Position numbers and translations under genes: made by a program
DNA from: Candidatus Woesearchaeota archaeon
GTDB taxonomy: Archaea > Nanobdellota > Nanobdellia > SCGC-AAA011-G17 > PNOQ01
Direction: 5' to 3'
Length of the DNA stretch: 32,000 nucleotides
NCBI GenBank assembly: GCA_018302135.1
Contig: JAGWAE010000001.1
Coordinates: forward strand, 1 to 32,000
Shown: in pieces, positions 1,453 through 29,675 of the stretch
How positions within the stretch are numbered: position 1 is the stretch's first letter
Layout: every line of letters begins with the position of its first letter
The notes under the pieces: generated by a model
The model's database searches: none
Told to the model about the DNA's origin: nothing
Seen by the model: the letters and a program-made list of their open reading frames with translations, nothing else

Positions 1453-1803
1453 TTAATAACTTAATTTATACTTTTTGTAAATCTTTTGAACATGCCACTT
1501 TGAAAGATTAATCCCATTTATTTTTAAATCTCTACACATACCGTATTTGCTTCTTTTGTTTTCGTTCCACAATCGCAATATCATTTTTTCTGTATCCAAA
1601 TCAATAGGTACTTCTCTAGCACCAGGTTTTTTATTTTTAAGTCCAGTTTCGCCACATAAAGAATATAATTTAATCCATCTACTCAAAGTTTGTTTATGTA
1701 TTTTTTGCATCTTTGCAGATTTATTTATTGATACTTGCCCAGATAAAAATAGGTTTATACATCTTAACTTAAAATTTTTGCTGTAGCCTTTTTTATTTAT
1801 CAT
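1453..1803 (-). CDS. Stand-alone helix-turn-helix protein resembling the N-terminal DNA-binding half of an IS481/IS3-type (rve) transposase, with no catalytic domain
   Basis: 116 aa. KQTLSRWIKLY is an HTH-like segment, and MILRLWNENKRSKYGMCRDLKINGINLSKWHVQKIYKKYKL looks like a second winged helix as found ahead of rve integrase cores. The gene starts 5 nt after the deacetylase stop, so it is probably co-transcribed. Confidence 0.5.
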   Translation of the reverse strand: MINKKGYSKNFKLRCINLFLSGQVSINKSAKMQKIHKQTLSRWIKLYSLCGETGLKNKKPGAREVPIDLDTEKMILRLWNENKRSKYGMCRDLKINGINLSKWHVQKIYKKYKLSY

Positions 1804-7884: not shown

Positions 7885-10484
7885 CTTATATCCTCGATTT
7901 CATTTTCTTTCCCAATTTTAGCTAAAATCATTTGATGCATTCTATTAATAAAATCCATTCTGTCTTCCATTCGCATTATATCCATATAACCATCACTAAT
8001 TAAACCAAAAGCAAATGGGCTCGGTATTGAAGTATTAGTTTCTTTTATTTTTATTTTTCCCCATTTAATATCTTCTAATATTTTTTTAGCGTTATTTAAA
8101 TCCATTAAGTCATCTAAAACTTCTCTTCTAGCTTCTTTTAAAATACTAAAATCATTATCAATTCTTTTAACTGCATTTAACAATATCATACTACTAACTT
8201 GTTGTCTACCTACATGTTTTCTAACTCCTTTATACTCTTTTAATATCATTAATGCTCTTGTAGCACAATGTCTAAACCTTCTTTTCAAAATTTCAGTTTT
8301 TTCAATCGCATCTTCCATTAAAGATTTCAACTCGCTAGGGTCTAGCTGTGAAAAGGCTCTAACTGCCTGTAAATTTTTAGTGCTAGCAACATAAAAACCA
8401 TTATCACTAATTCCAATTTCTAAGTCTCTTTTATGAATTTTACCAAGAACATAAGCAACAGCTCTACTTAAAACATCATTAACTCTTCTTCCAAATAAAG
8501 TGTGAAATATAACATATGTTTTATCCTTTTCATCAGTATAATATTCAACTATTATTTTTTTATCGTTAGGAATCAAAGAATATAAATATTGTTCCTTAAA
8601 ATATTTATAAATTGCATTTGCAGCATTTTCATCAACATACAAATGGTGATTAATAAATTTCAAAATATCTTTCTTACTATTTTTACTTTCAAAATACTCT
8701 TCAATTAATCTCCTAAACCTTTGTATTTCCAAAGCCAAATCAAAACTCAATGGCAACATTTCAGAAAACCAAGAAGGTATAGTGGGAGATCTACCAGAAG
8801 CAGACCTAACTTGAACCGACATTCCTCTGCTATGTAAATATTCATAAGTATCTCCACCAATAACAAAAATATCTCCTTTATCTAATCGTTCCAAAAATGC
8901 TTCATCAATAGTTCCTATAACTTTATCTCCAATTTTAACTTTTACATTAGTTTCATCAGGGATAGTTCCGACATTAGTCATATTAATAACCCTGCTCATC
9001 TTTCCTTTTTTACCAATTTCTCTAGACTCTTTATCATACCAAATTTTTCCATAAATATAACGTTCTTCTAGCTCAACATATTCACCAGCTAAATATTTTA
9101 TAATTTCAAAAAAATCTTCCTCAGTTAAATCTTTATAACAATAACTTTTTCTCAATAATTTGTATAATTCATCAACATTCCAAATATTAATAATTGCCAT
9201 ACTATGTATTACTTGAGCTAAAACATCTAACGCATTAACTGGAATGTGAATTTTATCTATTTTTTTATCAATAGCATTTTTTAATAGTACACTACATTCA
9301 ACTAAATCATCTCTATCTGTAACAACAATTCTTCCTTTTACAGTTTCATGCAATGCATGCCCACTACGACCAACTCTTTGCAAAAATCTAGCTACACTTT
9401 TCGGACTACCCAAACAAAGAACTAAATCAATATAACCAATATCAATTCCTAACTCTAAACTTGTTGAACAAACCACACATTTTAATTTTCCTTCTTTCAA
9501 TTTATTTTCAATATCCAATCTATGTTTTTTACTTAAACTTCCATGATGTGCACCAATATTCTCAATATATCTAGAAGGAAATAAAGTTTTCAAATGATGC
9601 ACAACTCTTTCAGTTCCAGCCCTAGTATTAGTAAATATTAAAGTAGTTTTATGTTCTTGAATTAAATTATCTAACATATTATACAAAGCTTTGTGATAAT
9701 CTTCAAAAGTAATATCTATTAAATCTGGCAAAGGAGAAATAACTTTTAGATCAAATTTTTTACTAAAATGAACATTTGCAATTTTACAATCTCTTTCGGG
9801 CCCAACTAAATATTTAGCAATCTCTTCTATGGGCTCAACAGTTGCAGATAATCCAATCCTACATAAATTAGGACTAATATAATTCAAATGTTCCATCAAT
9901 AAATTTAAATGTACTCCTCTTTTATTCTCAGCTAATGCATGTATTTCATCAATAATACACCATTCAACTCCTTTTAACAATTCATAGAATTTATAACTCA
10001 TCAACATTATTGCCAAAGATTCTGGAGTTGTAATTAATATATGAGGAACTTTCTTCAACATCTTTTGTTTTTCGTTTGGAGTTGTATCACCAGTTCTAAC
10101 ACCAATTCTAATATTAATATCCAACCCTTTTAATTTAGCTAATTCTTTTATTTCCTTTAATGGTTCTTCTAAATTTATAGCGATATCATTATTCAAAGCT
10201 TTCAAAGGAGAAATATAAATCGCATAAACTTTATCTTCTAATTTATTTTTCAAAGATAAACCAACTAGTTCATTAATTATACTCAAAAAAGCAGTTAAAG
10301 TTTTAGTTCCCCCAGTTGGAGCAGAAATTAATATATTATTTCTTTCGTGTATTTCCTTAACCCCATAGAGCTGTGGCTCAGAAAAGCTACGATACTTACT
10401 AAAAAACCATTCTTTAACAAGAGGATGTAGCAGTTTTTCCACTTGTTCTGTTTGGTATGGTTTCTCAAGAAATTTCACTTCCAT
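7881..10484 (-). CDS. lhr: Lhr-family ATP-dependent DNA helicase (superfamily 2, DEAH)
   Basis: 867 aa. The Walker A motif is SAPTGGTKT, and DEIH, SAT and QRVGRSGH helicase motifs are present. The N-terminal LHPLVKEWFFSKYRSFSEPQ is typical of Lhr, and there is a long C-terminal Lhr/DEAD-associated region. Confidence 0.9.
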   Translation of the reverse strand: MEVKFLEKPYQTEQVEKLLHPLVKEWFFSKYRSFSEPQLYGVKEIHERNNILISAPTGGTKTLTAFLSIINELVGLSLKNKLEDKVYAIYISPLKALNNDIAINLEEPLKEIKELAKLKGLDINIRIGVRTGDTTPNEKQKMLKKVPHILITTPESLAIMLMSYKFYELLKGVEWCIIDEIHALAENKRGVHLNLLMEHLNYISPNLCRIGLSATVEPIEEIAKYLVGPERDCKIANVHFSKKFDLKVISPLPDLIDITFEDYHKALYNMLDNLIQEHKTTLIFTNTRAGTERVVHHLKTLFPSRYIENIGAHHGSLSKKHRLDIENKLKEGKLKCVVCSTSLELGIDIGYIDLVLCLGSPKSVARFLQRVGRSGHALHETVKGRIVVTDRDDLVECSVLLKNAIDKKIDKIHIPVNALDVLAQVIHSMAIINIWNVDELYKLLRKSYCYKDLTEEDFFEIIKYLAGEYVELEERYIYGKIWYDKESREIGKKGKMSRVINMTNVGTIPDETNVKVKIGDKVIGTIDEAFLERLDKGDIFVIGGDTYEYLHSRGMSVQVRSASGRSPTIPSWFSEMLPLSFDLALEIQRFRRLIEEYFESKNSKKDILKFINHHLYVDENAANAIYKYFKEQYLYSLIPNDKKIIVEYYTDEKDKTYVIFHTLFGRRVNDVLSRAVAYVLGKIHKRDLEIGISDNGFYVASTKNLQAVRAFSQLDPSELKSLMEDAIEKTEILKRRFRHCATRALMILKEYKGVRKHVGRQQVSSMILLNAVKRIDNDFSILKEARREVLDDLMDLNNAKKILEDIKWGKIKIKETNTSIPSPFAFGLISDGYMDIMRMEDRMDFINRMHQMILAKIGKENEIEDIR

Positions 10485-10591
10485 TGTAGCCTAAAGAATA
10501 TTATGAGTAATAGTTAAATTTAAAAAACCTGCGCTGGTGTTTGGCAAGCTAAAACAAAACCATTAAATATTTATAAAAACCCTAAAAGTAC

Positions 10592-10762
10592 ATGAAAAAA
10601 GAACTAATTTTACCCAAAGAATACGATTATGAGACTAGATTAGAAACTCTAGATGAAACTGAACTAAGGGCTAAAATAATGATAGACGTTTTCAAAGAAA
10701 TAGAAAAAAGGCATTTCGAAAACCCAAATAAATGCCCTTGGTGTAAAAAAGAATTGTCTTAA
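10592..10762 (+). CDS. Small hypothetical protein (56 aa) ending in CPWCKKELS
   Basis: Hand-translated ATG ORF that falls below the track cutoff. ATTTATAAAA lies about 20 nt upstream, consistent with a leaderless archaeal mRNA. I see no recognisable family. Confidence 0.3.
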   Translation: MKKELILPKEYDYETRLETLDETELRAKIMIDVFKEIEKRHFENPNKCPWCKKELS

Positions 10763-10798
10763 CAAAAATTTTTTAAACCACAAAAACAAAAAATCGTT

Positions 10799-11371
10799 AT
10801 GATTAGCTCAACTATAGATAAATTTATTGCAGAATCTTTTGATAGAGCATTATTTGTTGTTCAAGAACCATTAAAGAATGAAGAGTTGATTTGGGCATTA
10901 ATACCAATAATTGTGACTTTAATTTTAATAGAAATTTATTTTGGTAGATATAGAAGAGAAGAACTTGGCTGGAACACAGCTTTTGGAAACTCACTAATTC
11001 TAATATTTGTTTCAGCAGATTTAATTAAGTATTCAATAAGAACTAATATACTAGGTACAGATCCAATAAAAACTGGGATTATAGTTGGTTTAATCACAGT
11101 TGGTTTTATAATAACTTTTGTAGATTTTTTTCATATGATGCCAAGAGAATGGGCATTTGCAATATCCTCAAAATTACCAACAAGCTTTTTAGCAATAATT
11201 TCAATGCTATTTATTTACATAGATATTCCGATTGATTACATCACAGCCACAGCATTGTTTCTTCTACTCTTAAATATGTACATTGTTTTAATAATAATAC
11301 ATCATTTGATACCTGCATTTAGAGGATTATTTCCAGAAGAAGTTCCAGATCCGATATTAGAAGAAGATTAA
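10799..11371 (+). CDS. Integral membrane protein of unknown function
   Basis: 190 aa with about 5 hydrophobic helices and an acidic C-terminal tail (EEVPDPILEED). Confidence 0.55.
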   Translation: MISSTIDKFIAESFDRALFVVQEPLKNEELIWALIPIIVTLILIEIYFGRYRREELGWNTAFGNSLILIFVSADLIKYSIRTNILGTDPIKTGIIVGLITVGFIITFVDFFHMMPREWAFAISSKLPTSFLAIISMLFIYIDIPIDYITATALFLLLLNMYIVLIIIHHLIPAFRGLFPEEVPDPILEED

Positions 11372-20293: not shown

Positions 20294-21310
20294 ATGGAAA
20301 TACTTTTAAAACACATCGAGTTCAAAACCTTGATGGAAAAAACGCCTAATCTTCAAGTTCCTAAAAAAAGAATAAAAAGAACGGGAGTATATATAAGCAA
20401 ACCACTCAAAAAATTTCTCGAAGAATCAACCCATGCTTATACTGAAACTTTAACCCCTAATAGAGAAGAAGTGTCAATTTATTGTGACCATATTAGTAAA
20501 GCAAAACATGTTCTCATGGGCAAATTTTACGAAGAATTAAGCGGAGCATTTTATGGAGGAATAGTACTTGATGGAAAGTCAATAAGAGAAAATCCGGCTC
20601 AATTAGATATTGATTTTGGAGAACTCGAACAAATGATAAACTGGGAAAATAAACCAAAAGATGAATTATTTATAAAACCTGATATAGTAAACATTGGAAA
20701 ATCAATAGGTGAAGCAAAGGGATGCAAAAGCGGTTCATCACTTCATATTTTTGACGAACAAACAGAAAGATATAGAAAAATACAACTAAGAAGTCCAGCA
20801 CATTCAGTTTACTTTGCAATATACAGACACGCATTTCAGAGAATAAAAGATAAAACGGCTACAATACGCTCGGGTGAAGAAATAATACAAGATTTAAGTT
20901 TATCGACAATGTATTCATTAAAAATTCCATTGAGTATACTCTTGTACTTACATGGAAAATGGTATGGAAATATAAAAGAAACGTTAGGATATAGGTATGG
21001 GAAATCAGATTATCAAGATTGTACGATGGCAAGAGAATTTGCAATAAGAAGTTTATTTCAAGATCCAGAAAAAATAATTGATATGCTTGATTTAAGCCCA
21101 GAAAATTACAAAATTACTAGAAAGTTATCACCAGAAAATTTTACAGTAAGAACTTCACCAGCAGAATCATTAACAACTCTAACACAATTTCCAATACTTA
21201 TGATAGAAGACAAAGACCATGAAAACTGGATTGATTCATTCGTTGAATCTGAAAAAAGATTAGGAACAAACATCCAAGAAATACAAGGAACAGAAGAAGT
21301 TCCTTTCTAA
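20294..21310 (+). CDS. Hypothetical protein with a candidate PD-(D/E)xK nuclease motif
   Basis: 338 aa. FIKPDIVNIGKSIGEAKGCK fits (P)D-x10-E-x-K. I recognise no other family features. Its 3' end overlaps the convergent EamA gene by 4 nt. Confidence 0.55.
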   Translation: MEILLKHIEFKTLMEKTPNLQVPKKRIKRTGVYISKPLKKFLEESTHAYTETLTPNREEVSIYCDHISKAKHVLMGKFYEELSGAFYGGIVLDGKSIRENPAQLDIDFGELEQMINWENKPKDELFIKPDIVNIGKSIGEAKGCKSGSSLHIFDEQTERYRKIQLRSPAHSVYFAIYRHAFQRIKDKTATIRSGEEIIQDLSLSTMYSLKIPLSILLYLHGKWYGNIKETLGYRYGKSDYQDCTMAREFAIRSLFQDPEKIIDMLDLSPENYKITRKLSPENFTVRTSPAESLTTLTQFPILMIEDKDHENWIDSFVESEKRLGTNIQEIQGTEEVPF

Positions 21311-22179
21311 AACCTAATAACAAGAATAGCACCAATAATCAACAACAATGTAGCAATTGTTTTCTTTAGTAAATTATGTTCCTTAAACAATTCTCCTCCA
21401 ATTACAACTGCAAAAAACACTGAAGTTCTTTTAACTGCCAAGGCTAAAGCAGTTGAAGTTGTAGTTTTTATAGCCAATATTTCAAAATATCTATAACCAA
21501 TTGTTACCAAACTCAATATTAAAATTAAAATCCAATCTCTTCTAAGAGTTTTTCCAAAATTCTTAATATTTTTTCTTTTATCAAATATTAAAAACATAGC
21601 TAAAAATATAAAAAAGAAGAAAAAGTGTTGAAAGCTCATTAAAGCAGTTGGCTGTAATTTATATTTATTTAACAAAACTCTGTCTAGTATAGTAGTTATG
21701 GTAAACAAAGTCAAAGCCAAAATAATAAATTTATATCCTTTTTTTAATTTCTTAAAAGGATCTAATAAACTTCGATTAGTCTGAAAAATATAAACTCCTA
21801 AAGTTAATAAGAATAACCCAAATATTTCTAAATTAGTTAAACTTTCTTTCAAAAATATCCAAGCAAATAACGCAACAAAACCAGGAGTTAACACAAGTAG
21901 AGGCAAAGCATCTGATAGTTCTAAATTTTTTATAGCAAACATTACTCCAACAAAAGCAATTCCATTTAATACAGCTTTAAACAATAATACAATTAAACTA
22001 ATACTAGTTATTTTAGAAAAGTCAATATAAAACAAAAATATTGAAGCTAAAATCATATTAAAAATTGCCAAAACTAAAACAAAATCTAAAGCTCTATCTT
22101 TAAACAAAGCTTTTTTCTCAATTATTGCAGCAAATGCAGAAAGAATAGCAGATATTCCCGCAAAATAAAACCATTCCAT
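21307..22179 (-). CDS. EamA/DMT-superfamily transporter
   Basis: 290 aa with about 10 TM helices arranged as two EamA-like halves. Confidence 0.75.
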   Translation of the reverse strand: MEWFYFAGISAILSAFAAIIEKKALFKDRALDFVLVLAIFNMILASIFLFYIDFSKITSISLIVLLFKAVLNGIAFVGVMFAIKNLELSDALPLLVLTPGFVALFAWIFLKESLTNLEIFGLFLLTLGVYIFQTNRSLLDPFKKLKKGYKFIILALTLFTITTILDRVLLNKYKLQPTALMSFQHFFFFFIFLAMFLIFDKRKNIKNFGKTLRRDWILILILSLVTIGYRYFEILAIKTTTSTALALAVKRTSVFFAVVIGGELFKEHNLLKKTIATLLLIIGAILVIRF

Positions 22180-22387: not shown

Positions 22388-23179
22388 ATGAAACATAATA
22401 AACTTGTAACAATAGCATTAGTCTCATTATTTTTATTAGCTCAATTAATTGGTTTAGTAATAATAGATAAGTATAACCAAAAAAGTTTACCTTTCGGAAT
22501 AGAAAGACCAGAATTTCAAGATAATTTTAGTTACATTTCTTTAATAATTTCAATTCTAATCGCAACAGGTCTTGCACTAATAATTATCAATTTAGGTGCA
22601 ATGAAAGTTTGGAAAGCCTGGTTTATTTTTGCATCACTATATTTACTAACAATAGCAATGACTGCATTCTTCAATGAATTAACTGCATTCATAATTGCTT
22701 TAGGATTAGTTTTATATAGGGTATTAAGATTATCATTAGTTTCACAAAATCTTTCAGAATTATTTATTTACAGTGGAATCGCAGCTATATTTTCTCCAGT
22801 TCTAACAATTTTCTCAGCTTGTATGTTATTAATATTAATATCAATTTATGATATCATAGCAGTTTGGAAAACAAAACATATGGTTAAACTCGCAAAATTC
22901 CAAACAAAGTCAAGGATGTTTGCAGGATTGTTAATTCCATACAATAAAGGCAAAAAAGCAGCAATACTTGGTGGTGGAGATATTGGATTCCCTATGATAT
23001 TCTTTGGTGTAGTTTTAATGAAATATTCAGTTTTACACGCATTGATTTCAATATTCACTACGTCACTAGCATTATTGTTATTATTGATTTACAGCAAGAA
23101 AAATAAATTTTATCCAGCTATGCCATTCATAAGCGCAGGTTGTTTCGCTGGGCTTTTAATTTCGTTACTATTAATATAA
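22388..23179 (+). CDS. Presenilin / signal-peptide-peptidase homologue (A22 intramembrane aspartyl protease)
   Basis: 263 aa and polytopic. The catalytic motifs are YD (SIYDIIAVW) and GxGD (LGGGDIGFP), with a PAL-like YPAMPF near the C-terminus. Confidence 0.8.
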   Translation: MKHNKLVTIALVSLFLLAQLIGLVIIDKYNQKSLPFGIERPEFQDNFSYISLIISILIATGLALIIINLGAMKVWKAWFIFASLYLLTIAMTAFFNELTAFIIALGLVLYRVLRLSLVSQNLSELFIYSGIAAIFSPVLTIFSACMLLILISIYDIIAVWKTKHMVKLAKFQTKSRMFAGLLIPYNKGKKAAILGGGDIGFPMIFFGVVLMKYSVLHALISIFTTSLALLLLLIYSKKNKFYPAMPFISAGCFAGLLISLLLI

Positions 23180-23189
23180 GGAGGTTAAA

Positions 23190-23372
23190 ATGGTAAAAGT
23201 ATCTGTAGACAAAAACAAATGTATTGGTTGTGGAGAATGTGTAAAAATCTGTAAAAATTTTAAGATGGTAAATAACAAATCAGTGCCAGTAGATAAAAAT
23301 CCAAAAGAAATTGGTTGTAATGAAAAAGCAGCAAAAAACTGTCCAACAAAAGCAATAAAAGTTAGTAAGTAA
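23190..23372 (+). CDS. Small single-cluster [4Fe-4S] ferredoxin (Pyrococcus furiosus Fd-like)
   Basis: 60 aa. It begins VKVSVDKNKCIGCGECVKIC and has a distal ...NCP, giving the pattern CxxCxxC...CP. An AGGAGG Shine-Dalgarno-like site lies upstream. Confidence 0.75.
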   Translation: MVKVSVDKNKCIGCGECVKICKNFKMVNNKSVPVDKNPKEIGCNEKAAKNCPTKAIKVSK

Positions 23373-24195
23373 ACTTCAAACCTTCAGCTCTTTCAAAAGT
23401 TCCTCTTCTTGATAAAGGTATTCTTTCTCTTTTAGCTTTATTTAAATAAGCAATAATTCTCTTCTTCTTTTTAGCAATTGATAAATTACAAGTATGTGAC
23501 CCACCAATACAACCTCCAACACAAAAATTCACATCCAAAAATTTAATTTTTTTATCTGGTTTATCTAAAAACTGCATAACTTTTTTTATTCCATCAATAT
23601 GTTTAATTTCATTTTTTTTAATAACATCATTTAAATGCGCAGTTTTGCTTAATCCCCCAGCCAAAGGATAAATTTTAGTATAATCATTATAGAACTTATC
23701 AAATATTTTTTTACTTGGTTTAATATTATTTAACTTTTTTTCTTTAAAAATTTCTCTTAATTGTTCATAATCTATTACATAATCAACATATTTTGATTTA
23801 TTTGCTTCTATTTTTTTATAATCGCAAGGAGACAAGAAAACAGTTTTATGTTTAGGATAAATTTTTTTACAAATTTTAGCCATAGCAATCATAGGACTGT
23901 CAACTCTAATCAAATTCTTTTTATATTTTGGATAATTTTTATTAACAACTTCAACTATTCCTGGACAAACTGTAGCTATAACTAATCCTTTAGAACTTTT
24001 TAATATTTTATGATACTCTCTATTAACTAATTTAGCACCAAAAGTTAACTCAACAATTTTGTCAAAACCTAATTTTTCTAACTGAGAGAGTATTTTAGGA
24101 TATTCAAAATCAGCAACAAAACTTGGAGCAACTAGCGCAACCATTTTCTTATGCTTTAATTCTTTTAAAATTAAATTAATATTATTTTTTTTCAT
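23362..24195 (-). CDS. Minimal [FeFe]-hydrogenase large-subunit H-domain homologue (Fe_hyd_lg_C-like) with no accessory Fe-S domains
   Basis: 277 aa. By my recollection of Clostridium pasteurianum hydrogenase I (CpI), it aligns along its length: VAPSF, LGFDKI, FGA, ATVCPG (vs TSCCPG), DSP, LSPCDYKKIEA (vs MPCxxKKxEA) and FCVGGCIGG (vs CHGGCVNGGG). Cys77, Cys124, Cys225 and Cys229 occupy the four H-cluster ligand positions. Confidence 0.7.
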   Translation of the reverse strand: MKKNNINLILKELKHKKMVALVAPSFVADFEYPKILSQLEKLGFDKIVELTFGAKLVNREYHKILKSSKGLVIATVCPGIVEVVNKNYPKYKKNLIRVDSPMIAMAKICKKIYPKHKTVFLSPCDYKKIEANKSKYVDYVIDYEQLREIFKEKKLNNIKPSKKIFDKFYNDYTKIYPLAGGLSKTAHLNDVIKKNEIKHIDGIKKVMQFLDKPDKKIKFLDVNFCVGGCIGGSHTCNLSIAKKKKRIIAYLNKAKRERIPLSRRGTFERAEGLKFTY

Positions 24196-24226
24196 TAACT
24201 AAAAATTAAAATTGAAATATATAAAA

Positions 24227-25045
24227 TTAACCTTTCCATCCAACTTTCTTCTTCATCAAACTAACTAAAACATCATGTTTTTCTTCAAATGTTTGTCTAG
24301 TATGTTTATACAAAACTCCAATAGGAATTCTTCCATTTCTAGTTGCATAATCCCATTCATCAGCCAATTTCATAGCTCTTTTCATATTACTTCCATTATC
24401 AACTTTATACATATATTTTCTAGCATGATCTAAACTAGGATTAAATATAATACAAGTTTGTAATATTTCAACAAAAGCAAATCCTTTATGTTCTATTGCT
24501 TCTTTAATAATCTTAGCTGTATGCTCAATATTTCTAGCATCACATCTAGCAACAAAACTAGCACCAGAAACTAAAGCCAATTTTATAGGATTTAAAGGAT
24601 GTATTTCATTACCATTAGGTTCTATTTTACTTTTAAAACCAAGTTGTGAAGTTGGAGTAATTTGACCAGTAGTCAAAGAAAAAGACTGATTATCATGTAC
24701 TATCAAAGTCATATCACTATTATTTCTACAAGCATGAATAAAATGCTCCATACCTTCTGAATAAGTATCACCATCACCAGCATAACAAACAACTTTCAAA
24801 TTAGGATTTCCAATTTTAATTCCAAAAGCACTAGCTAACGCTCTGCCATGTAATCCGTAAAAACCACTTAAGTTCAAATAATCAAAAATTTTACCATGAC
24901 AACCAATTCCAGCAACAATAACAAAATCATTTTTTTTATATCCTTTCTTAATTAAACTATTAAAAGCTCTCTTACTAGATTCTAGAATCATATGATTAGG
25001 GCATCCAGGACACCAAGTTATTTTGTAGTCAGTAGATAGATTCAT
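24227..25045 (-). CDS. 2-oxoacid:ferredoxin oxidoreductase, beta (TPP-binding) subunit
   Basis: 272 aa carrying WCPGCPNH, GIGCHGK and YAGDGDTYSEGMEHFIHACRNN, the TPP/Fe-S motifs of POR/KOR beta subunits. Confidence 0.9.
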   Translation of the reverse strand: MNLSTDYKITWCPGCPNHMILESSKRAFNSLIKKGYKKNDFVIVAGIGCHGKIFDYLNLSGFYGLHGRALASAFGIKIGNPNLKVVCYAGDGDTYSEGMEHFIHACRNNSDMTLIVHDNQSFSLTTGQITPTSQLGFKSKIEPNGNEIHPLNPIKLALVSGASFVARCDARNIEHTAKIIKEAIEHKGFAFVEILQTCIIFNPSLDHARKYMYKVDNGSNMKRAMKLADEWDYATRNGRIPIGVLYKHTRQTFEEKHDVLVSLMKKKVGWKG

Positions 25046-25620
25046 TTTTTACCTCTTAATATTTTAGCTCTTGCCTTTCTCCAATCACTTCTAAAAAGCG
25101 CGTATATATTATCATCATAAATCTTACCGTCTGCTTTACAAATAGTTACTTTTTTTCTAGTTCCCTCTCGTTTAAATCCAAATTTTATGGCCATAGAATT
25201 TGAAGCCTTATTATTTGTAAAAACTTGGCTTTCTAATCTTCTTAATTTTAATTTATCAAAAGCAAAATCAAGTATTGGAACTTTAGCTTCTGTTATATAT
25301 CCCTTTTTCCAATATTTTTTATTTATCCAAGAACCTGTAATAGCTGTTTTATTTTGGTAATTAATATTTTCTACGCTTGTTGCGCCTATAACTTTTTTTT
25401 CAGATTTTAATTCAATTACAAAAGTGTAACCCTCTCTCTGTTTTTTTCTCCATTTTTTAATAGTTCTATTAATCCACCAAAGGGCATCTTTTTTCTTATA
25501 CGGATGAGGAACTGTAGCAAGATTTTTTGAGACTTCCAATCCTTTTACTCCTTCGACCACATCTTTCCAATCAGTTTTTCTAGGTTTTCTCAAGATTAAT
25601 CTTTCAGTTTCAAAAATCAT
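25042..25620 (-). CDS. GNAT N-acetyltransferase (RimJ/RimL, Acetyltransf_3-like)
   Basis: 192 aa. The N-terminal ETERLILRKPRKTDW is a hallmark of the family, and the GNAT core follows (WINKKYWKKGYITEA...). Both ends share ATGA stop/start overlaps with the OFOR subunit genes. Confidence 0.85.
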   Translation of the reverse strand: MIFETERLILRKPRKTDWKDVVEGVKGLEVSKNLATVPHPYKKKDALWWINRTIKKWRKKQREGYTFVIELKSEKKVIGATSVENINYQNKTAITGSWINKKYWKKGYITEAKVPILDFAFDKLKLRRLESQVFTNNKASNSMAIKFGFKREGTRKKVTICKADGKIYDDNIYALFRSDWRKARAKILRGKK

Positions 25621-27128
25621 ATTTTTCCTAACTCCTTCCTCAACTCATCAGCCAAAAAAGGCCTTCCATCATATTTCAATATTCTTTTCTCAATTTGAAT
25701 TCCAGTTCTTTCTCTAATTAATCTTCCAAGTTGTCCAGTTAAATTATTTTCAACTAGCACAACTTTTTTAGCTTTCTGAATTTCTTTTTTAATTCTAGAA
25801 CTCATTGGCATTAAATATAAAACTTGTAAAAATTTATAATCTAAGTCTTTAATAGCATCCAATATTACACCTTTAGTACTTCCAAAACCAATAACTAAAT
25901 TTTTGCTATTTTTTTTACCATGAACTTTAATCATTTCAAATTTTTTAACTTCTTTTTTTATTTTACTATATTTCAATAATCTAGCTTCATTATTTTTTTT
26001 AACAATCACAGAATCCTCAGTAGTATTTCCATATTTATCATGCTCATAACTAGTTGCTCTAACTAATCCTTCACCAGGAATTTTTCTAGCAACACTAAAC
26101 TTTATTGATCTATTTGGTTTAGAATCACTTCCGTATTCACCCTCAGCCAAATGTTTATCAGATAATATTATACTCAAACATTTAAATTTTTCAGCTAAAT
26201 AAAAAGATTCATTAGTTTTTTCAATACATTCTACAGGATCGCCCGGAGCAACAACAACTCTAGGAAATTCACCATGGCCTCCACGTAAAGCAATGTTCAA
26301 ATCAGATTGCCCAGAATAAGTTGGAACTCCAGTTGAAGGCCCAGGTCTTGAAGCTAAATAAACAACTAATGGAACTTCAGACATTCCTTGAAAACTTAAA
26401 CCTTCAGTCATCAAATCAAAACCGCCACCAGAAGTACCAATCATAACTTTAGCTCCAGCAAAACTTGCACCTAAAGCAGCATTAATTACAGCAATTTCAC
26501 TTTCTGGCTGTATAACCAAAACTTTTCTAGCCAAATCATTCATCAATGGAGTAGCTGGTGTCATAGGATAAGCAAAATAAACATTCAATCCAGAATTTAC
26601 AGCACCAATAGCAACTCCTTCGCTACCATCTAAAATATTTATTTTATTTTTTAATTTTTTTAAATGATATTTAATTATACTTCCTTGACTATCATAACCT
26701 TTCTCAGCTGCATGTTCTGCCTCTTTAGTTCCAAACTCTTTTTTAATTTCATTTAATAAATCTTGTTTTTCTATTCCTAACAGTTTTATCAAAGCACCAG
26801 CCAAAGCAACATTAGTATTTCTTCCTAAACCAATAAAACTTTGAAAATTTAAAACAATACAATTACGATTTAATTTATTTTCATGTATTTTTGTTGTATC
26901 AATATCCAATGCTAAAATAAAATCAATTTTGTTAGTATAACTATTAATTCTTTCATCAGATATTGTTAAAATATTAAAATTATGTCCTCCTCTAATCAAA
27001 GAAGGATAATCTCTATAATTAAAAGTGTAATAACCTTTTTTTGCTACAATACTAGAAATTATCTTAGATACTTTGTTAATTCCTTGGCCTGCTTGGCCAC
27101 CAATAAGAATGTTAATTATCACCTTCAT
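25617..27128 (-). CDS. 2-oxoacid:ferredoxin oxidoreductase, fused gamma-alpha subunit
   Basis: 503 aa. The N-terminal roughly 165 aa form a gamma domain (ILIGGQAGQGINKVSKI...). The alpha domain follows (GSEGVAIGAVNSGLNVYFAYPMTPATP, GTSGGGFDLMTEGLS, RPGPSTGVPT). Confidence 0.9.
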   Translation of the reverse strand: MKVIINILIGGQAGQGINKVSKIISSIVAKKGYYTFNYRDYPSLIRGGHNFNILTISDERINSYTNKIDFILALDIDTTKIHENKLNRNCIVLNFQSFIGLGRNTNVALAGALIKLLGIEKQDLLNEIKKEFGTKEAEHAAEKGYDSQGSIIKYHLKKLKNKINILDGSEGVAIGAVNSGLNVYFAYPMTPATPLMNDLARKVLVIQPESEIAVINAALGASFAGAKVMIGTSGGGFDLMTEGLSFQGMSEVPLVVYLASRPGPSTGVPTYSGQSDLNIALRGGHGEFPRVVVAPGDPVECIEKTNESFYLAEKFKCLSIILSDKHLAEGEYGSDSKPNRSIKFSVARKIPGEGLVRATSYEHDKYGNTTEDSVIVKKNNEARLLKYSKIKKEVKKFEMIKVHGKKNSKNLVIGFGSTKGVILDAIKDLDYKFLQVLYLMPMSSRIKKEIQKAKKVVLVENNLTGQLGRLIRERTGIQIEKRILKYDGRPFLADELRKELGKI

Positions 27129-27156
27129 TTAATTTTTGAAAACTAGATTTATAAAA

Positions 27157-28479
27157 TTATCTTTTATTATAATACCCAACTAACTTATCCAAAGCACTAA
27201 TAGCTTTCTCAGGGAAATCAAAACTAACTAAATTTAAATTTTTTAAATATTCAGGATTAGAACCAGTAGCAACTAATATCATAGGTTTCTTGTTAAATTT
27301 AGCTATTACTTCCAAAACCTTTTCATCTAAAGTAGGAGTTTGATACAAAACAATAACTAAAACACAATCAACATTTTTATCATTCATTACATTTTCTAGA
27401 GCAAATTTATACCTTTCATCATTCGCGTCTCCAACAATATCCAAAGGATTTCCAATGTTAACAGTTGGGGGTAACTCTTTCCATAATCTTCTTTTAACAT
27501 TTAAAGAGAGTTCAGTCATTTTCAAGTTTTTAGAGAGTTCAATACCATCCGCACTAATAATTCCAAAACCACCACCATTAGTTAAAACTAAAATTTTATT
27601 TCCTTTCAATTTTATTTCTTTATCAAAAAGCATAGCAACATCAAACATTTGTTCCAAACTATCAACCCTAACTAAGTTTAACTGATCAAAGATTCCATAA
27701 AACACTTCTTTTTCACCAGCCATAGATCCAGTATGAGACATAGCAGCTTTGCTACCTTTTTCAGTTAATCCACCCTTCAAAACAATAATAGGTTTTTTTA
27801 TTTTTTTACAAATATTAAAAAACTTTTCAGGATTTTTTATTCCTTCTACATATAAACAAATAACTTTAGTATGTTTATCTTTATTCAAATATTGAAGTAA
27901 ATCTGACTCATTAATATCAACAGCATTACCATAACTAATAAACTTAGAAAAACCAACATGTTTACTAGCCAACAAATCTAAAACAGCTCCACCTAAAGCT
28001 CCAGATTGACAAACAAAACTTACTCCCCCTTTATTTGGCCTTCTCAATTTTTCCTTAGGTATAAATATACAATCTAAATTAGAATAAGCATCATATAAAC
28101 CTAAACAATTTGGTCCAATAACTCTAATGTTATTCTTTGTTGTATATTCTTTTAATTCTTCTTCTGCTTTTACATTTCCAACTTCACTAAACCCAGAACT
28201 AATTATCAAAACATTTTTTATTTTCATATAATTACAATCTTCTAATATACTCATTACCAAACTTTGATGTACACAAATTATTGCTAATTCAATATTATCT
28301 TTAACTTCAGCAACAGAACTATAACATCTAACACCAAGTATTTCTTGCGCATTAGGAGTTATAGGATAAACCTTAAACTTAGCTTCTAATAAATTTTTAA
28401 AAATAACATGCCCAATTTTATTTTCTTCTCTAGATACTCCTATAACTGCTATACTTTTAGGCCTAAAAAACTCTTTCAT
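27157..28479 (-). CDS. acdA: ADP-forming acetyl-CoA synthetase (acetate-CoA ligase, NDP-forming), alpha subunit (CoA-binding and ligase-CoA domains)
   Basis: 440 aa. FFRPKSIAVIGVSREENKIGH is the CoA-binding N-terminus, IGPNCLG is present, and AAMSHTGSMAG is the phosphohistidine loop. Confidence 0.85.
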   Translation of the reverse strand: MKEFFRPKSIAVIGVSREENKIGHVIFKNLLEAKFKVYPITPNAQEILGVRCYSSVAEVKDNIELAIICVHQSLVMSILEDCNYMKIKNVLIISSGFSEVGNVKAEEELKEYTTKNNIRVIGPNCLGLYDAYSNLDCIFIPKEKLRRPNKGGVSFVCQSGALGGAVLDLLASKHVGFSKFISYGNAVDINESDLLQYLNKDKHTKVICLYVEGIKNPEKFFNICKKIKKPIIVLKGGLTEKGSKAAMSHTGSMAGEKEVFYGIFDQLNLVRVDSLEQMFDVAMLFDKEIKLKGNKILVLTNGGGFGIISADGIELSKNLKMTELSLNVKRRLWKELPPTVNIGNPLDIVGDANDERYKFALENVMNDKNVDCVLVIVLYQTPTLDEKVLEVIAKFNKKPMILVATGSNPEYLKNLNLVSFDFPEKAISALDKLVGYYNKR

Positions 28480-28643
28480 CTATATAATTTTTAGATTTTG
28501 AATATATAAAATTATCGTATACGACTACAATAAAACTCTAATCTTAATTATCATAGACGTATAATATTATATAAACTTATAAGTAGTTACAAAAACGAAA
28601 GGTTTATAAATGATTGATTTTCAAAAAGATTAAGGAAATAAAA

Positions 28644-29009
28644 ATGTCAATTAAACAAAAAATAATAAAAACAGTATTACCTTTAACATTAGTTGGTATT
28701 CTAGCTGGATGTAACGCAGAAGGGCCCAAAATAATAGACACAGAAAGAAGAGAGTTTGAAACTTGGGAATTTCCATTCAAAAATTATAAAGCAGGATTCT
28801 ATTTAGTTTCATCTAAACCAGATTCAAATGGAAGAACTTATTTCTATTCAACAAAAAAAGTTCGTATTGGATATACTGTACCTTTAGATGACAGCACAAG
28901 AGTTGCAGTTAACGAGGAAACTGGCTGTTCTTCTACACAACGTTTAGATAGAACTAGTCCATGGGAAAAATGGCACACAATAAATACAGAGTGCCAAGAA
29001 CAATTCTAA
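28644..29009 (+). CDS. Small putative lipoprotein of unknown function
   Basis: The track starts at TTG 28614. The ATG at 28644 gives MSIKQKIIKTVLPLTLVGILAGCNAEG, with a lipobox-like LAGC. An AAGGA element lies upstream. Confidence 0.55.
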   Translation: MSIKQKIIKTVLPLTLVGILAGCNAEGPKIIDTERREFETWEFPFKNYKAGFYLVSSKPDSNGRTYFYSTKKVRIGYTVPLDDSTRVAVNEETGCSSTQRLDRTSPWEKWHTINTECQEQF

Positions 29010-29048
29010 CAGTTAACTATTTAAAACAAAAAAATAAATATTAACTTA

Positions 29049-29675
29049 ATGAGTAAAATATTAAATTCATACGAAGCACAACATTTTCTAGAAAAATATA
29101 TAGATTTACCTAAATCACAATTAGTTAACGTTTTATCAGAAATAAAAATTCAACCACCATTAGTTCTAAAAATAATTTCTGATCAAGCCATTCATAAAAC
29201 AGAAATAAAAGGAGTACGTATTGTTAATTCTAATGAACAATTAGTTAAAGAATTTAACAATTTACAAATTTTATCAAAAAAAATTAATATTAAAGGCATT
29301 TTAGTTCAAGAATTTATAGAAGGTGAACAACTAATAATAGGAATAAAGAAAGATCCAGTTTTCAATCATGTAATTTTATTCGGTCTTGGAGGAATATACA
29401 CTGAACTACTAAAAGATACATCTATTAGAAAATGTCCAATCACAGAAAAAGACGCTTTAGAAATGATTAATAGTCTAAAATCAAAAGAATTATTCTACAA
29501 TTTCAGTAACAAAAAATTAAACACAAAATTATTAATAAAAACACTAGTTAATATTTCAAAAATTCCATCAAAACATAAAGACATACAAGAACTAGATATT
29601 AATCCATTCATATTAAACGAAAAAGAAGGAAAAGCAGTTGATATAAGAATTGTTTTTAATTCTTTACAGTCTTAA
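29049..29675 (+). CDS. acdB: ADP-forming acetyl-CoA synthetase beta subunit (ATP-grasp domain)
   Basis: 208 aa. LNSYEAQHFLEKY...LVLKIISDQAIHKTEIKGVRI...LVQEFIEGEQLIIGIKKDPVFNHVILFGLGGIYTELLKD...ELDINP is typical of the ATP-grasp_5 / ACD beta family. Confidence 0.8.
   Translation: MSKILNSYEAQHFLEKYIDLPKSQLVNVLSEIKIQPPLVLKIISDQAIHKTEIKGVRIVNSNEQLVKEFNNLQILSKKINIKGILVQEFIEGEQLIIGIKKDPVFNHVILFGLGGIYTELLKDTSIRKCPITEKDALEMINSLKSKELFYNFSNKKLNTKLLIKTLVNISKIPSKHKDIQELDINPFILNEKEGKAVDIRIVFNSLQS

Follow-up and report, generated by a model that had tools for sequence, protein, structure and literature searches.

Does a short run of genes in a woesearchaeal genome hold a complete route from a 2-oxoacid to acid, ATP and H2, and do these genes work as one unit? 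The question arises at positions 23,190 to 29,675 of a 32,000-nt stretch of DNA from Candidatus Woesearchaeota archaeon (GCA_018302135.1, contig JAGWAE010000001.1, positions 1 to 32,000 of the forward strand; hereafter, the window), which is AT-rich, with a G+C content of ~28%. Our analyses make it probable that the locus is a fermentative energy island, in which a 2-oxoacid:ferredoxin oxidoreductase (OFOR), an ADP-forming acyl-CoA synthetase (ACD), a ferredoxin, and a group E [FeFe] hydrogenase would together convert a 2-oxoacid to acid, ATP, and H2. The predicted features of the locus are as follows (lengths in amino acids, aa; domain names from Pfam).

23190-23372, plus strand: ferredoxin with a single [4Fe-4S] cluster, 60 aa (Fer4_13)
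23362-24195, minus strand: hydA, hydrogenase consisting of the H-domain only, 277 aa (Fe_hyd_lg_C)
24196-24226, minus strand: 31-nt spacer with a TATA-like box, between OFOR beta and hydA
24227-25045, minus strand: OFOR beta (oforB), binding thiamine pyrophosphate (TPP) and a single [4Fe-4S] cluster, 272 aa (TPP_enzyme_C and PFO_beta_C)
25042-25620, minus strand: GNAT N-acetyltransferase, RimJ/RimL-like, 192 aa (Acetyltransf_3)
25617-27128, minus strand: OFOR gamma-alpha fusion (oforA), 503 aa (POR and POR_N)
27129-27156, minus strand: 28-nt spacer with a TATA-like box, between acdA and oforA
27157-28479, minus strand: acdA, ACD alpha, 440 aa (CoA_binding_2 and Succ_CoA_lig)
28480-28613, no strand: divergent intergenic region with a TATA-like box, upstream of acdA
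28614-29009, plus strand: open reading frame (ORF) without a family match, 131 aa, between acdA and acdB
29049-29675, plus strand: acdB, ACD beta (ATP-grasp), 208 aa (ATP-grasp_5, E 3e-43)

The five minus-strand genes are separated by 31, -4, -4, and 28 nt in the order from hydA to acdA, and the 3' ends of the ferredoxin gene and hydA converge with an 11-nt overlap. The start of acdB lies 569 nt from that of acdA with the 131-aa ORF between them, so that the two are not directly divergent. An earlier reading of this DNA made from the letters alone (the original prediction) had placed seven genes here, the five on the minus strand with gaps of at most 31 nt, and had given the same 11-nt overlap; all of this was reproduced by the ORF calls, and the identities it gave to the genes were upheld by matches to Pfam, NCBIfam, and solved structures.

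The OFOR is predicted to be of the two-subunit (alpha-beta) Sulfolobus type, with an alpha chain combining gamma-like and POR_N domains and a beta chain carrying TPP and four Cys. Its alpha chain matches that of the Sulfolobus tokodaii enzyme StOFOR (5b48_A, E 8e-70), with the YPMTPA motif retained, and the beta chain matches StOFOR beta (5b46_B, E 2e-50), with identical residues in WCPGC, GIGC, the Cys of ILQTC, and GDGD. No gene for a 2x[4Fe-4S] delta subunit was found in the cluster. As in StOFOR (structures 5b46, 5b47, and 5b48), a gamma-like domain is fused to alpha, beta would hold TPP and one [4Fe-4S] cluster, a delta subunit is lacking, and the Cys ligands, YP(I/M)TPA, and GDGD are conserved. 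The OFOR of the window differs from StOFOR in that its alpha chain, at 503 aa, is ~125 residues shorter than the 627-aa S. tokodaii chain (almost all relatives have ~490-540 aa) and its two genes are interrupted by the GNAT gene. StOFOR is a broad-spectrum enzyme with respect to substrate. OFOR alpha reached 448 bits against TIGR03710 (E 5e-134), just under the curated cutoff of 482.75 bits, and the other NCBIfam comparison for the OFOR gave 254.5 against 261.9; such subcutoff scores are consistent with a divergent and shortened enzyme. The alpha chain also matches only positions 1-83 of 173 in the Pfam POR (gamma) model, and its compactness suggests a minimized OFOR beside a minimized hydrogenase.

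AcdA and AcdB are predicted to form a two-subunit ACD in which both histidines of the phosphoryl relay are kept, and the alpha and beta chains match Pyrococcus and Korarchaeum structures (2csu, 4xyl, and 1wr2). AcdA reached 454 bits against TIGR02717 (E 4e-136), under the 567-bit cutoff, and matched the structures 2csu, 4xyl_A, and 9y43; its MSHTGSMAG aligns with ASHTGSLGG of 9y43, with conservation of SHTGS, which we take to be the phosphohistidine site. AcdB matched 4xyl_B and 1wr2, its AIHKTEIKGV aligning with ILHKTDVGGV so that the histidine of HKT(D/E) is retained. The ferredoxin has one CxxCxxC...CP motif and two further Cys, and its best match among solved structures is the Thermotoga maritima ferredoxin (1rof), followed by that of Pyrococcus furiosus. 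The possibility that it is instead an OFOR delta subunit was considered and ruled out by the single cluster motif and by these best matches, both of which are free ferredoxins.

For HydA, the sole Pfam match is Fe_hyd_lg_C (residues 16-232, E 1.8e-40); the protein has six Cys in total, no additional cluster motif, and no accessory Fe-S or other domain. In an alignment with CpI and TmHydA, the putative H-cluster ligands C77, C124, C225, and C229 align to CpI C300, C355, C499, and C503, K127 corresponds to CpI K358, and the motif A23-P24-S25 is also present. We take this Lys to be the CN-binding one and the APS motif to carry the CN-binding backbone. The four Cys, K127, and the whole A23-P24-S25 motif are invariant in an alignment of 18 sequences of the HydA family, as are the four Cys, K127, and P24 in 60 family sequences. 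An AlphaFold2 model (pLDDT 90.3, pTM 0.89) was matched by Foldseek with probability 1.0 and a TMq of ~0.75 to 7p8n, 1feh, and 8zqd (TmHydA, CpI, and CbA5H), and the modeled fold can be assigned with confidence to the [FeFe]-hydrogenase H-domain. The product is 100% identical to an NCBI entry and has ~986 relatives of ~280 aa, nearly all of them encoded in metagenome bins of DPANN archaea. It shares 57% identity with the homolog of CABMGN01 LFW-170_3 (locus L064 among the relatives described below), the two belonging to one family at E <1e-90, and this is apparently the CABMGN01 species whose group E enzyme was modeled in PMC11216029.

Group E comprises ultraminimal [FeFe] hydrogenases, on average 286 aa long, from DPANN phyla that include Nanoarchaeota sensu GTDB, with a CABMGN01 species named among the hosts (Greening et al., Cell 2024, PMC11216029), and Woesearchaeota fall inside GTDB Nanoarchaeota (PMC11606122). 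By its length, domain content, ligands, and clustering with a published member, HydA is predicted to belong to this group. Group E enzymes retain the H-cluster cysteines and differ in their proton-transfer residues, OFOR genes often adjoin them in Nanoarchaeota, and the "Fm" enzyme of Ca. Forterrea multitransposorum makes H2 in vitro after semisynthetic maturation with added synthetic [2Fe]adt (PMC11216029). With the Fm and CABMGN01 enzymes, HydA shares the H-domain-only architecture of ~280 aa, the absence of accessory Fe-S domains, the H-cluster cysteines, noncanonical proton-transfer residues, and a DPANN host; at the level of the locus, OFOR adjacency and the lack of maturases nearby are also shared. 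What the window adds to the known group E loci is an ACD alpha gene directly upstream of OFOR, a GNAT gene that splits the OFOR genes, and a convergent ferredoxin gene that overlaps the hydA 3' end. It also differs from most relatives in having a 31-nt, promoter-like spacer between oforB and hydA instead of an ORF overlap.

Because the catalytic and cofactor residues that were checked are present in all four enzyme components, each of these is predicted to be catalytically competent. The biochemical logic of the original prediction also holds: acyl-CoA and reduced ferredoxin would come from OFOR, ATP from ACD, and reoxidation of the ferredoxin from the hydrogenase. In the first step, the two-subunit OFOR would oxidatively decarboxylate a 2-oxoacid, most likely pyruvate, to acyl-CoA, CO2, and reduced ferredoxin. 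AcdA and AcdB would then convert the acyl-CoA to acid and ATP via the two-histidine phosphoryl relay, and the single-cluster ferredoxin would hand its electrons to the 277-aa group E [FeFe] hydrogenase for release as H2. In this scheme, we infer the substrate, the pairing of ferredoxin with hydrogenase, the flux direction, and H-cluster maturation in vivo.

The conversion of pyruvate to acetate and ATP with H2 from an [FeFe] hydrogenase is the standard model for Woesearchaeota (PMC11216029; PMC11606122). The chemical logic is also that of fermentation in P. furiosus, which combines POR/VOR/IOR/KGOR, ACD I/II, ferredoxin, and hydrogenase, and the ferredoxin is of the same single-cluster type. 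In Pyrococcus, on the other hand, the OFORs have four subunits, additional energy is conserved by a [NiFe] hydrogenase (MBH) that sits in the membrane and translocates ions, and the genes lie apart from one another, whereas the window has a soluble monomeric [FeFe] enzyme that would conserve no energy itself, and its genes are clustered. A second comparison is with the PFOR-ferredoxin-[FeFe] hydrogenase systems of hydrogenosomes and Clostridium, with which the locus shares the transfer of pyruvate electrons by ferredoxin to a monomeric hydrogenase. There, the PFOR is a homodimer of a single polypeptide, the hydrogenases carry accessory clusters (the alternative being algal HydA1, of 457 aa), HydEFG maturases are present, and ATP comes from acetate:succinate CoA-transferase with succinyl-CoA synthetase, or from Pta-Ack, and not from ACD.

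The linkage of these genes was followed across relatives by scanning one genome per GTDB species, of which 195 contained a relative of the window hydA. Eighty of the 195 loci, from Woesearchaeota and Pacearchaeota, were taken with up to 10 kb on each side of hydA (designated L005, L085, and so on), and neighbors were counted by tblastn and ORF-family clustering; the counts below are given for all 80 loci and then for the 45 with at least 6 kb upstream and at least 3 kb downstream. Gaps between ORFs were measured with alignment-guided starts, as the longest ORF over-extends hydA N termini. OFOR occurs within 10 kb of hydA in 41/80 loci (28/45), and oforB lies upstream on the same strand in 35/80 (23/45). 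ACD is found near hydA in 9/80 (6/45), an AMP-forming acetyl-CoA synthetase (ACS) in 22/80 (20/45), and OFOR together with either of these in 31/80 (26/45). Neither ACD nor ACS was ever found near hydA without OFOR, and one or the other is present in 31 of the 41 OFOR-linked loci; the two appear to alternate as the third partner beside OFOR and hydA. The OFOR-adjacent ACDs of other lineages are 31-41% identical to that of the window, well below the 48-68% identity of OFOR alpha, which hints at repeated recruitment of an acyl-CoA-consuming enzyme. A small single-cluster ferredoxin gene is nearby in 9/80 loci (8/45), and in six of these nine it converges on hydA with no more than 900 nt to the 3' end of the latter. 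In 20 relatives, oforB stands immediately before hydA, with the ORFs overlapping or 1 nt apart in 15 of them.

A crude neighbor-joining tree of hydA placed the OFOR-linked loci on several deep branches, so that OFOR linkage looks ancestral, although such a tree is indicative only; the loci in which hydA adjoins RNase Z form essentially one clade. The physical linkage of OFOR and hydA is real, selected, and common in this lineage. The original prediction had called the joining of a hydrogenase to OFOR and ACD unusual and had pointed to synteny in relatives as a check. Synteny is indeed conserved, and the claim that the arrangement is unusual is not borne out, given the species count above and the OFOR adjacency already published (PMC11216029).

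Two further neighbors recur around hydA. A membrane H+-pyrophosphatase gene replaces ACD upstream of oforA in L085 (166-4408), L087 (534-2402), a further contig (P0153), and L006; it is accompanied by ACS in L085, L006, and the P0153 contig and by a cytochrome b5-like gene in L085 and L087. These loci hint at an alternative, pyrophosphate-linked conservation of energy from acetyl-CoA. A gene for an EamA/DMT-family transporter (21307-22179 in the window, minus strand) is among the most conserved hydA neighbors, being found in ~25/80 loci and thus more commonly than the ferredoxin gene; hydA has it as a neighbor whether linked to OFOR or to RNase Z, usually directly downstream and in convergent orientation.

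The original prediction also held that the locus is encoded as one unit, and here the signals upstream of the genes point elsewhere. For this analysis, a TATA-like motif was defined as TTTAWA or TTAWAWA, its position being that of the motif start relative to the ATG. Among 498 genes whose upstream gap measures 60 nt or more, the motif has a sharp maximum at -29/-28, with ~25% per position compared with a background of ~2%, and in the window and the 80 loci about half of the long-gap genes have a box starting at -29 or -28. This distance from the ATG indicates that leaderless mRNAs predominate. Where the same-strand gap is 25-40 nt (81 genes), a TATA-like box is found at -32 to -26 in 54 (67%) and a Shine-Dalgarno-like motif at -16 to -6 in 2%; for the 264 genes that overlap or follow a gap of at most 10 nt, the respective figures are 7-10% and 16-20%. 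Shine-Dalgarno-like motifs are largely confined to such overlapping or abutting genes. The distribution implies that same-strand gaps of 25-40 nt would mostly be minimal promoters in these genomes.

In the window, the hydA spacer has the TATA-like box TTTATATA at -30/-29 from the hydA ATG, the oforA spacer has TTTATAAA at -27/-26 from the oforA ATG, and acdA has a box at -31/-30; none of these three genes is preceded by a Shine-Dalgarno motif. A further box precedes acdB at about -28. A single operon would have one promoter and internal coupling, and only the GNAT gene and oforB combine a 4-nt overlap with a Shine-Dalgarno-like motif (AGAGGT for oforB). It is oforA-GNAT-oforB that look translationally coupled, and no other genes of the minus-strand series do. 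Given the boxes before acdA, oforA, and hydA and the absence of Shine-Dalgarno motifs there, the cluster is most likely not a single operon, and the claim of one unit survives for oforA-GNAT-oforB but not for acdA, oforA, and hydA, which have separate boxes. Most likely, judging from these motifs, the minus strand comprises three tandem units (acdA, oforA-GNAT-oforB, and hydA), each with a putative leaderless promoter, and read-through between them may occur. On the plus strand, a presenilin-like protease gene and the ferredoxin gene (together 22388-23372) most likely form one unit and acdB a separate one. A gap of 10 nt lies between the protease gene and the ferredoxin gene, the latter being preceded by a strong Shine-Dalgarno motif (AGGAGGT), from which the two appear to be co-transcribed. 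The same pair, an odd match of a soluble electron carrier with an intramembrane protease, is present in L005 and L085. A scan for bacterial promoters and terminators, which is not applicable to archaea, returned 51 promoter-like sites compared with 47 in shuffled sequence.

The gene inside the coupled unit deserves separate consideration. The GNAT gene of the window overlaps both OFOR genes by 4 nt, the same oforA-GNAT-oforB-hydA order with 4-nt overlaps is found in L085, L087, and the P0153 contig, and a GNAT gene also occupies the alpha/beta junction in L021, L027, L047, L065, and L081; in all, it is coupled between the OFOR genes in at least seven species-level lineages. A direct 4-nt overlap of the alpha and beta genes without an insert, found in 15 loci, is ancestral-looking. 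Another gene lies at the junction in 18 loci besides the window, although some of the short inserts may be spurious ORF calls (junction-insert loci: L005, L008, L010, L013, L021, L027, L031, L043, L047, L059, L065, and L081). The inserts encode a radical-SAM protein, a nitroreductase, a phosphoribosyltransferase, membrane proteins, a pyridoxal phosphate-dependent decarboxylase, and GNATs of at least three families. In L005, from the closest other species (hydA 86% identical), a 227-aa membrane protein replaces the GNAT. The alpha/beta junction is thus a recurrent insertion site for unrelated genes. As a general rule, the notion of the GNAT as an OFOR-specific partner was rejected, since four of seven close homologs are in unrelated contexts and the family is shared with Candidate Phyla Radiation bacteria. 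Two roles can be envisaged for the GNAT, that of a passenger at a junction prone to insertions and that of a modifier or regulator dependent on acetyl-CoA; in the latter case it might acetylate OFOR, ACD, or acetyl-CoA synthetase.

Several findings weigh against the fermentative reading. The group A proton pathway (C299-E279-S319-E282-R286 in CpI) is not kept in HydA, in which C299 is replaced by V76 and E279 by Y61, and S319, E282, and R286 have no conserved counterpart or fall in gaps. Such changes to the proton relay accompany low turnover in other [FeFe] hydrogenases. No gene for HydE, HydF, or HydG was found among the larger ORFs of the window or in the 42-kb contig context; the full HydEFG set occurs in only 5 of 130 archaeal genomes, and most hydrogenase-bearing archaea are without it (PMC11216029). 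The ferredoxin gene lies near hydA in as few as 9 of the 80 loci, and ~28/80 relatives have hydA among housekeeping genes (RNase Z and tRNA genes) and lack an OFOR gene within 10 kb of it, which means that OFOR linkage is not obligatory. The OFOR and ACD families both include broad-specificity enzymes, and ACD is reversible. With no HydEFG in the window and the canonical proton-relay residues absent, H2 production by HydA in vivo is something that we infer.

The same gaps in maturation and proton transfer feed the alternative that survives best, namely that HydA does not evolve H2 in vivo. It would then hold only the [4Fe-4S] subcluster or a noncanonical cofactor and act as a ferredoxin-linked redox or Fe-S protein (as do Nar1/NARFL, eukaryotic relatives of [FeFe] hydrogenases) or as an H2 or redox sensor, with the electrons exiting elsewhere and OFOR and ACD still making ATP. 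In its favor, in addition to the maturases not found in the window and the missing relay Cys and pathway residues, Ca. Forterrea is without any maturases and the published activity needed the synthetic [2Fe]adt cofactor (PMC11216029). However, the invariance of the four Cys, K127 (CpI K358), and the APS motif is more constraint than a plain [4Fe-4S] site seems to need, H-cluster binding and H2 formation in vitro are documented for a group E enzyme (PMC11216029), a role as electron sink would fit the conserved operon linkage to an enzyme that reduces ferredoxin, and neither another hydrogenase nor another electron sink is seen nearby. We regard this alternative as unlikely, if worth keeping in view. 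It is also possible, but in our view doubtful, that group E HydA functions in vivo without a canonical, HydEFG-made H-cluster or by another maturation route and, as a linked possibility, that the GNAT is an acetyl-CoA-sensing regulator of the module rather than a passenger; a non-HydEFG cluster or other maturation is suggested by the lack of maturases in most such genomes together with replacement of the whole canonical proton relay.

An assimilatory direction is quite improbable. By this account, the ACD would activate acetate at the cost of ATP and the OFOR would act as a pyruvate synthase with H2-reduced ferredoxin, amounting to H2-driven scavenging of host or community acetate and CO2. The ACD and OFOR families are, as generally known, reversible (for ACD, see also PMC11606122), and the OFOR neighbor in 22 related loci is an ACS, an enzyme that normally activates acetate. 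On the other hand, the reduction of ferredoxin by H2 to the potential needed for pyruvate synthesis would be unfavorable without bifurcation or an ion gradient, and HydA is monomeric, with no partner subunits; moreover, Woesearchaeota have been modeled and transcriptionally observed as acetate- and H2-producing fermenters (PMC11606122; PMC11216029). Least likely is that the adjacency is a meaningless by-product of gene packing or rearrangement in a ~1-Mb genome with genes transcribed independently, for although acdA, oforA, hydA, and acdB have separate promoter-like elements, gene order near hydA is fluid (as in L005, with a membrane-protein gene for the GNAT), and hydA lies elsewhere in 28/80 relatives, this is largely refuted by the conserved synteny, with OFOR near hydA in 41/80 species on several deep branches of the crude tree and far above the ~2% expected, by a rough estimate, for a single-copy gene in a ~1000-gene genome, oforB and hydA overlapping or 1 nt apart in 15 relatives, and ACD or ACS beside OFOR in 31/41 loci.

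The fermentative reading is therefore the one retained here, and a few features of the surroundings remain to be described. In the context without OFOR, the genes run TFB < S8e < LSm > RNase Z > hydA, and hydA is flanked by genes for tRNA-Arg and tRNA-Cys. Such loci are L030, L036, L046, L048, L057, L064, and L076 (locus positions ~9800-11100), and also L024, L033, and L045. In several of them, the 3' end of tRNA-Arg(TCT) is within a few nt of the hydA ATG, and tRNA-Cys(GCA) lies ~40-180 nt downstream of hydA in five of the first seven, being on the opposite strand in L036 and farther away in L046 and L048. This suggests that the RNase Z-context hydA moved into a tRNA cluster or is co-transcribed with tRNAs. 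No tRNA genes were found in the 32-kb window.

The 131-aa ORF between acdA and acdB (28614-29009) has no Pfam or NCBIfam match; contigs from its own population carry it as a gene of 121 aa, and it had no homolog in the loci examined from other species. It has an N-terminal hydrophobic stretch and a lipobox-like motif, LAGC, which suggests a candidate lipoprotein signal. The genes flanking the locus are archaeal housekeeping genes, including those for the presenilin-like protease (PSH), signal peptidase, aCPSF1, and aminoacyl-tRNA synthetases. Farther away, a small HTH_Tnp_1 ORF (1453-1803, minus strand) lies among cell-surface or sugar-modifying genes for a polysaccharide deacetylase, a glycosyltransferase, and a UDP-glucose dehydrogenase.

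Earlier publications already cover the concept, the enzyme class, and the adjacency of OFOR, and the additions made here are modest: linkage counts over 80 species, the alternation of ACD and ACS, a few loci with ACS and an H+-pyrophosphatase, short gaps in the window that look like promoters rather than operon joints, and a GNAT that recurs inside the OFOR operon. The point of interest is H-cluster maturation without HydEFG. From an ecological point of view, the locus shows in compact form how DPANN archaea with reduced genomes could obtain ATP through substrate-level phosphorylation while venting electrons as H2, and it bears on the syntrophic exchange of acetate and H2 that has been proposed between DPANN archaea and their partners.

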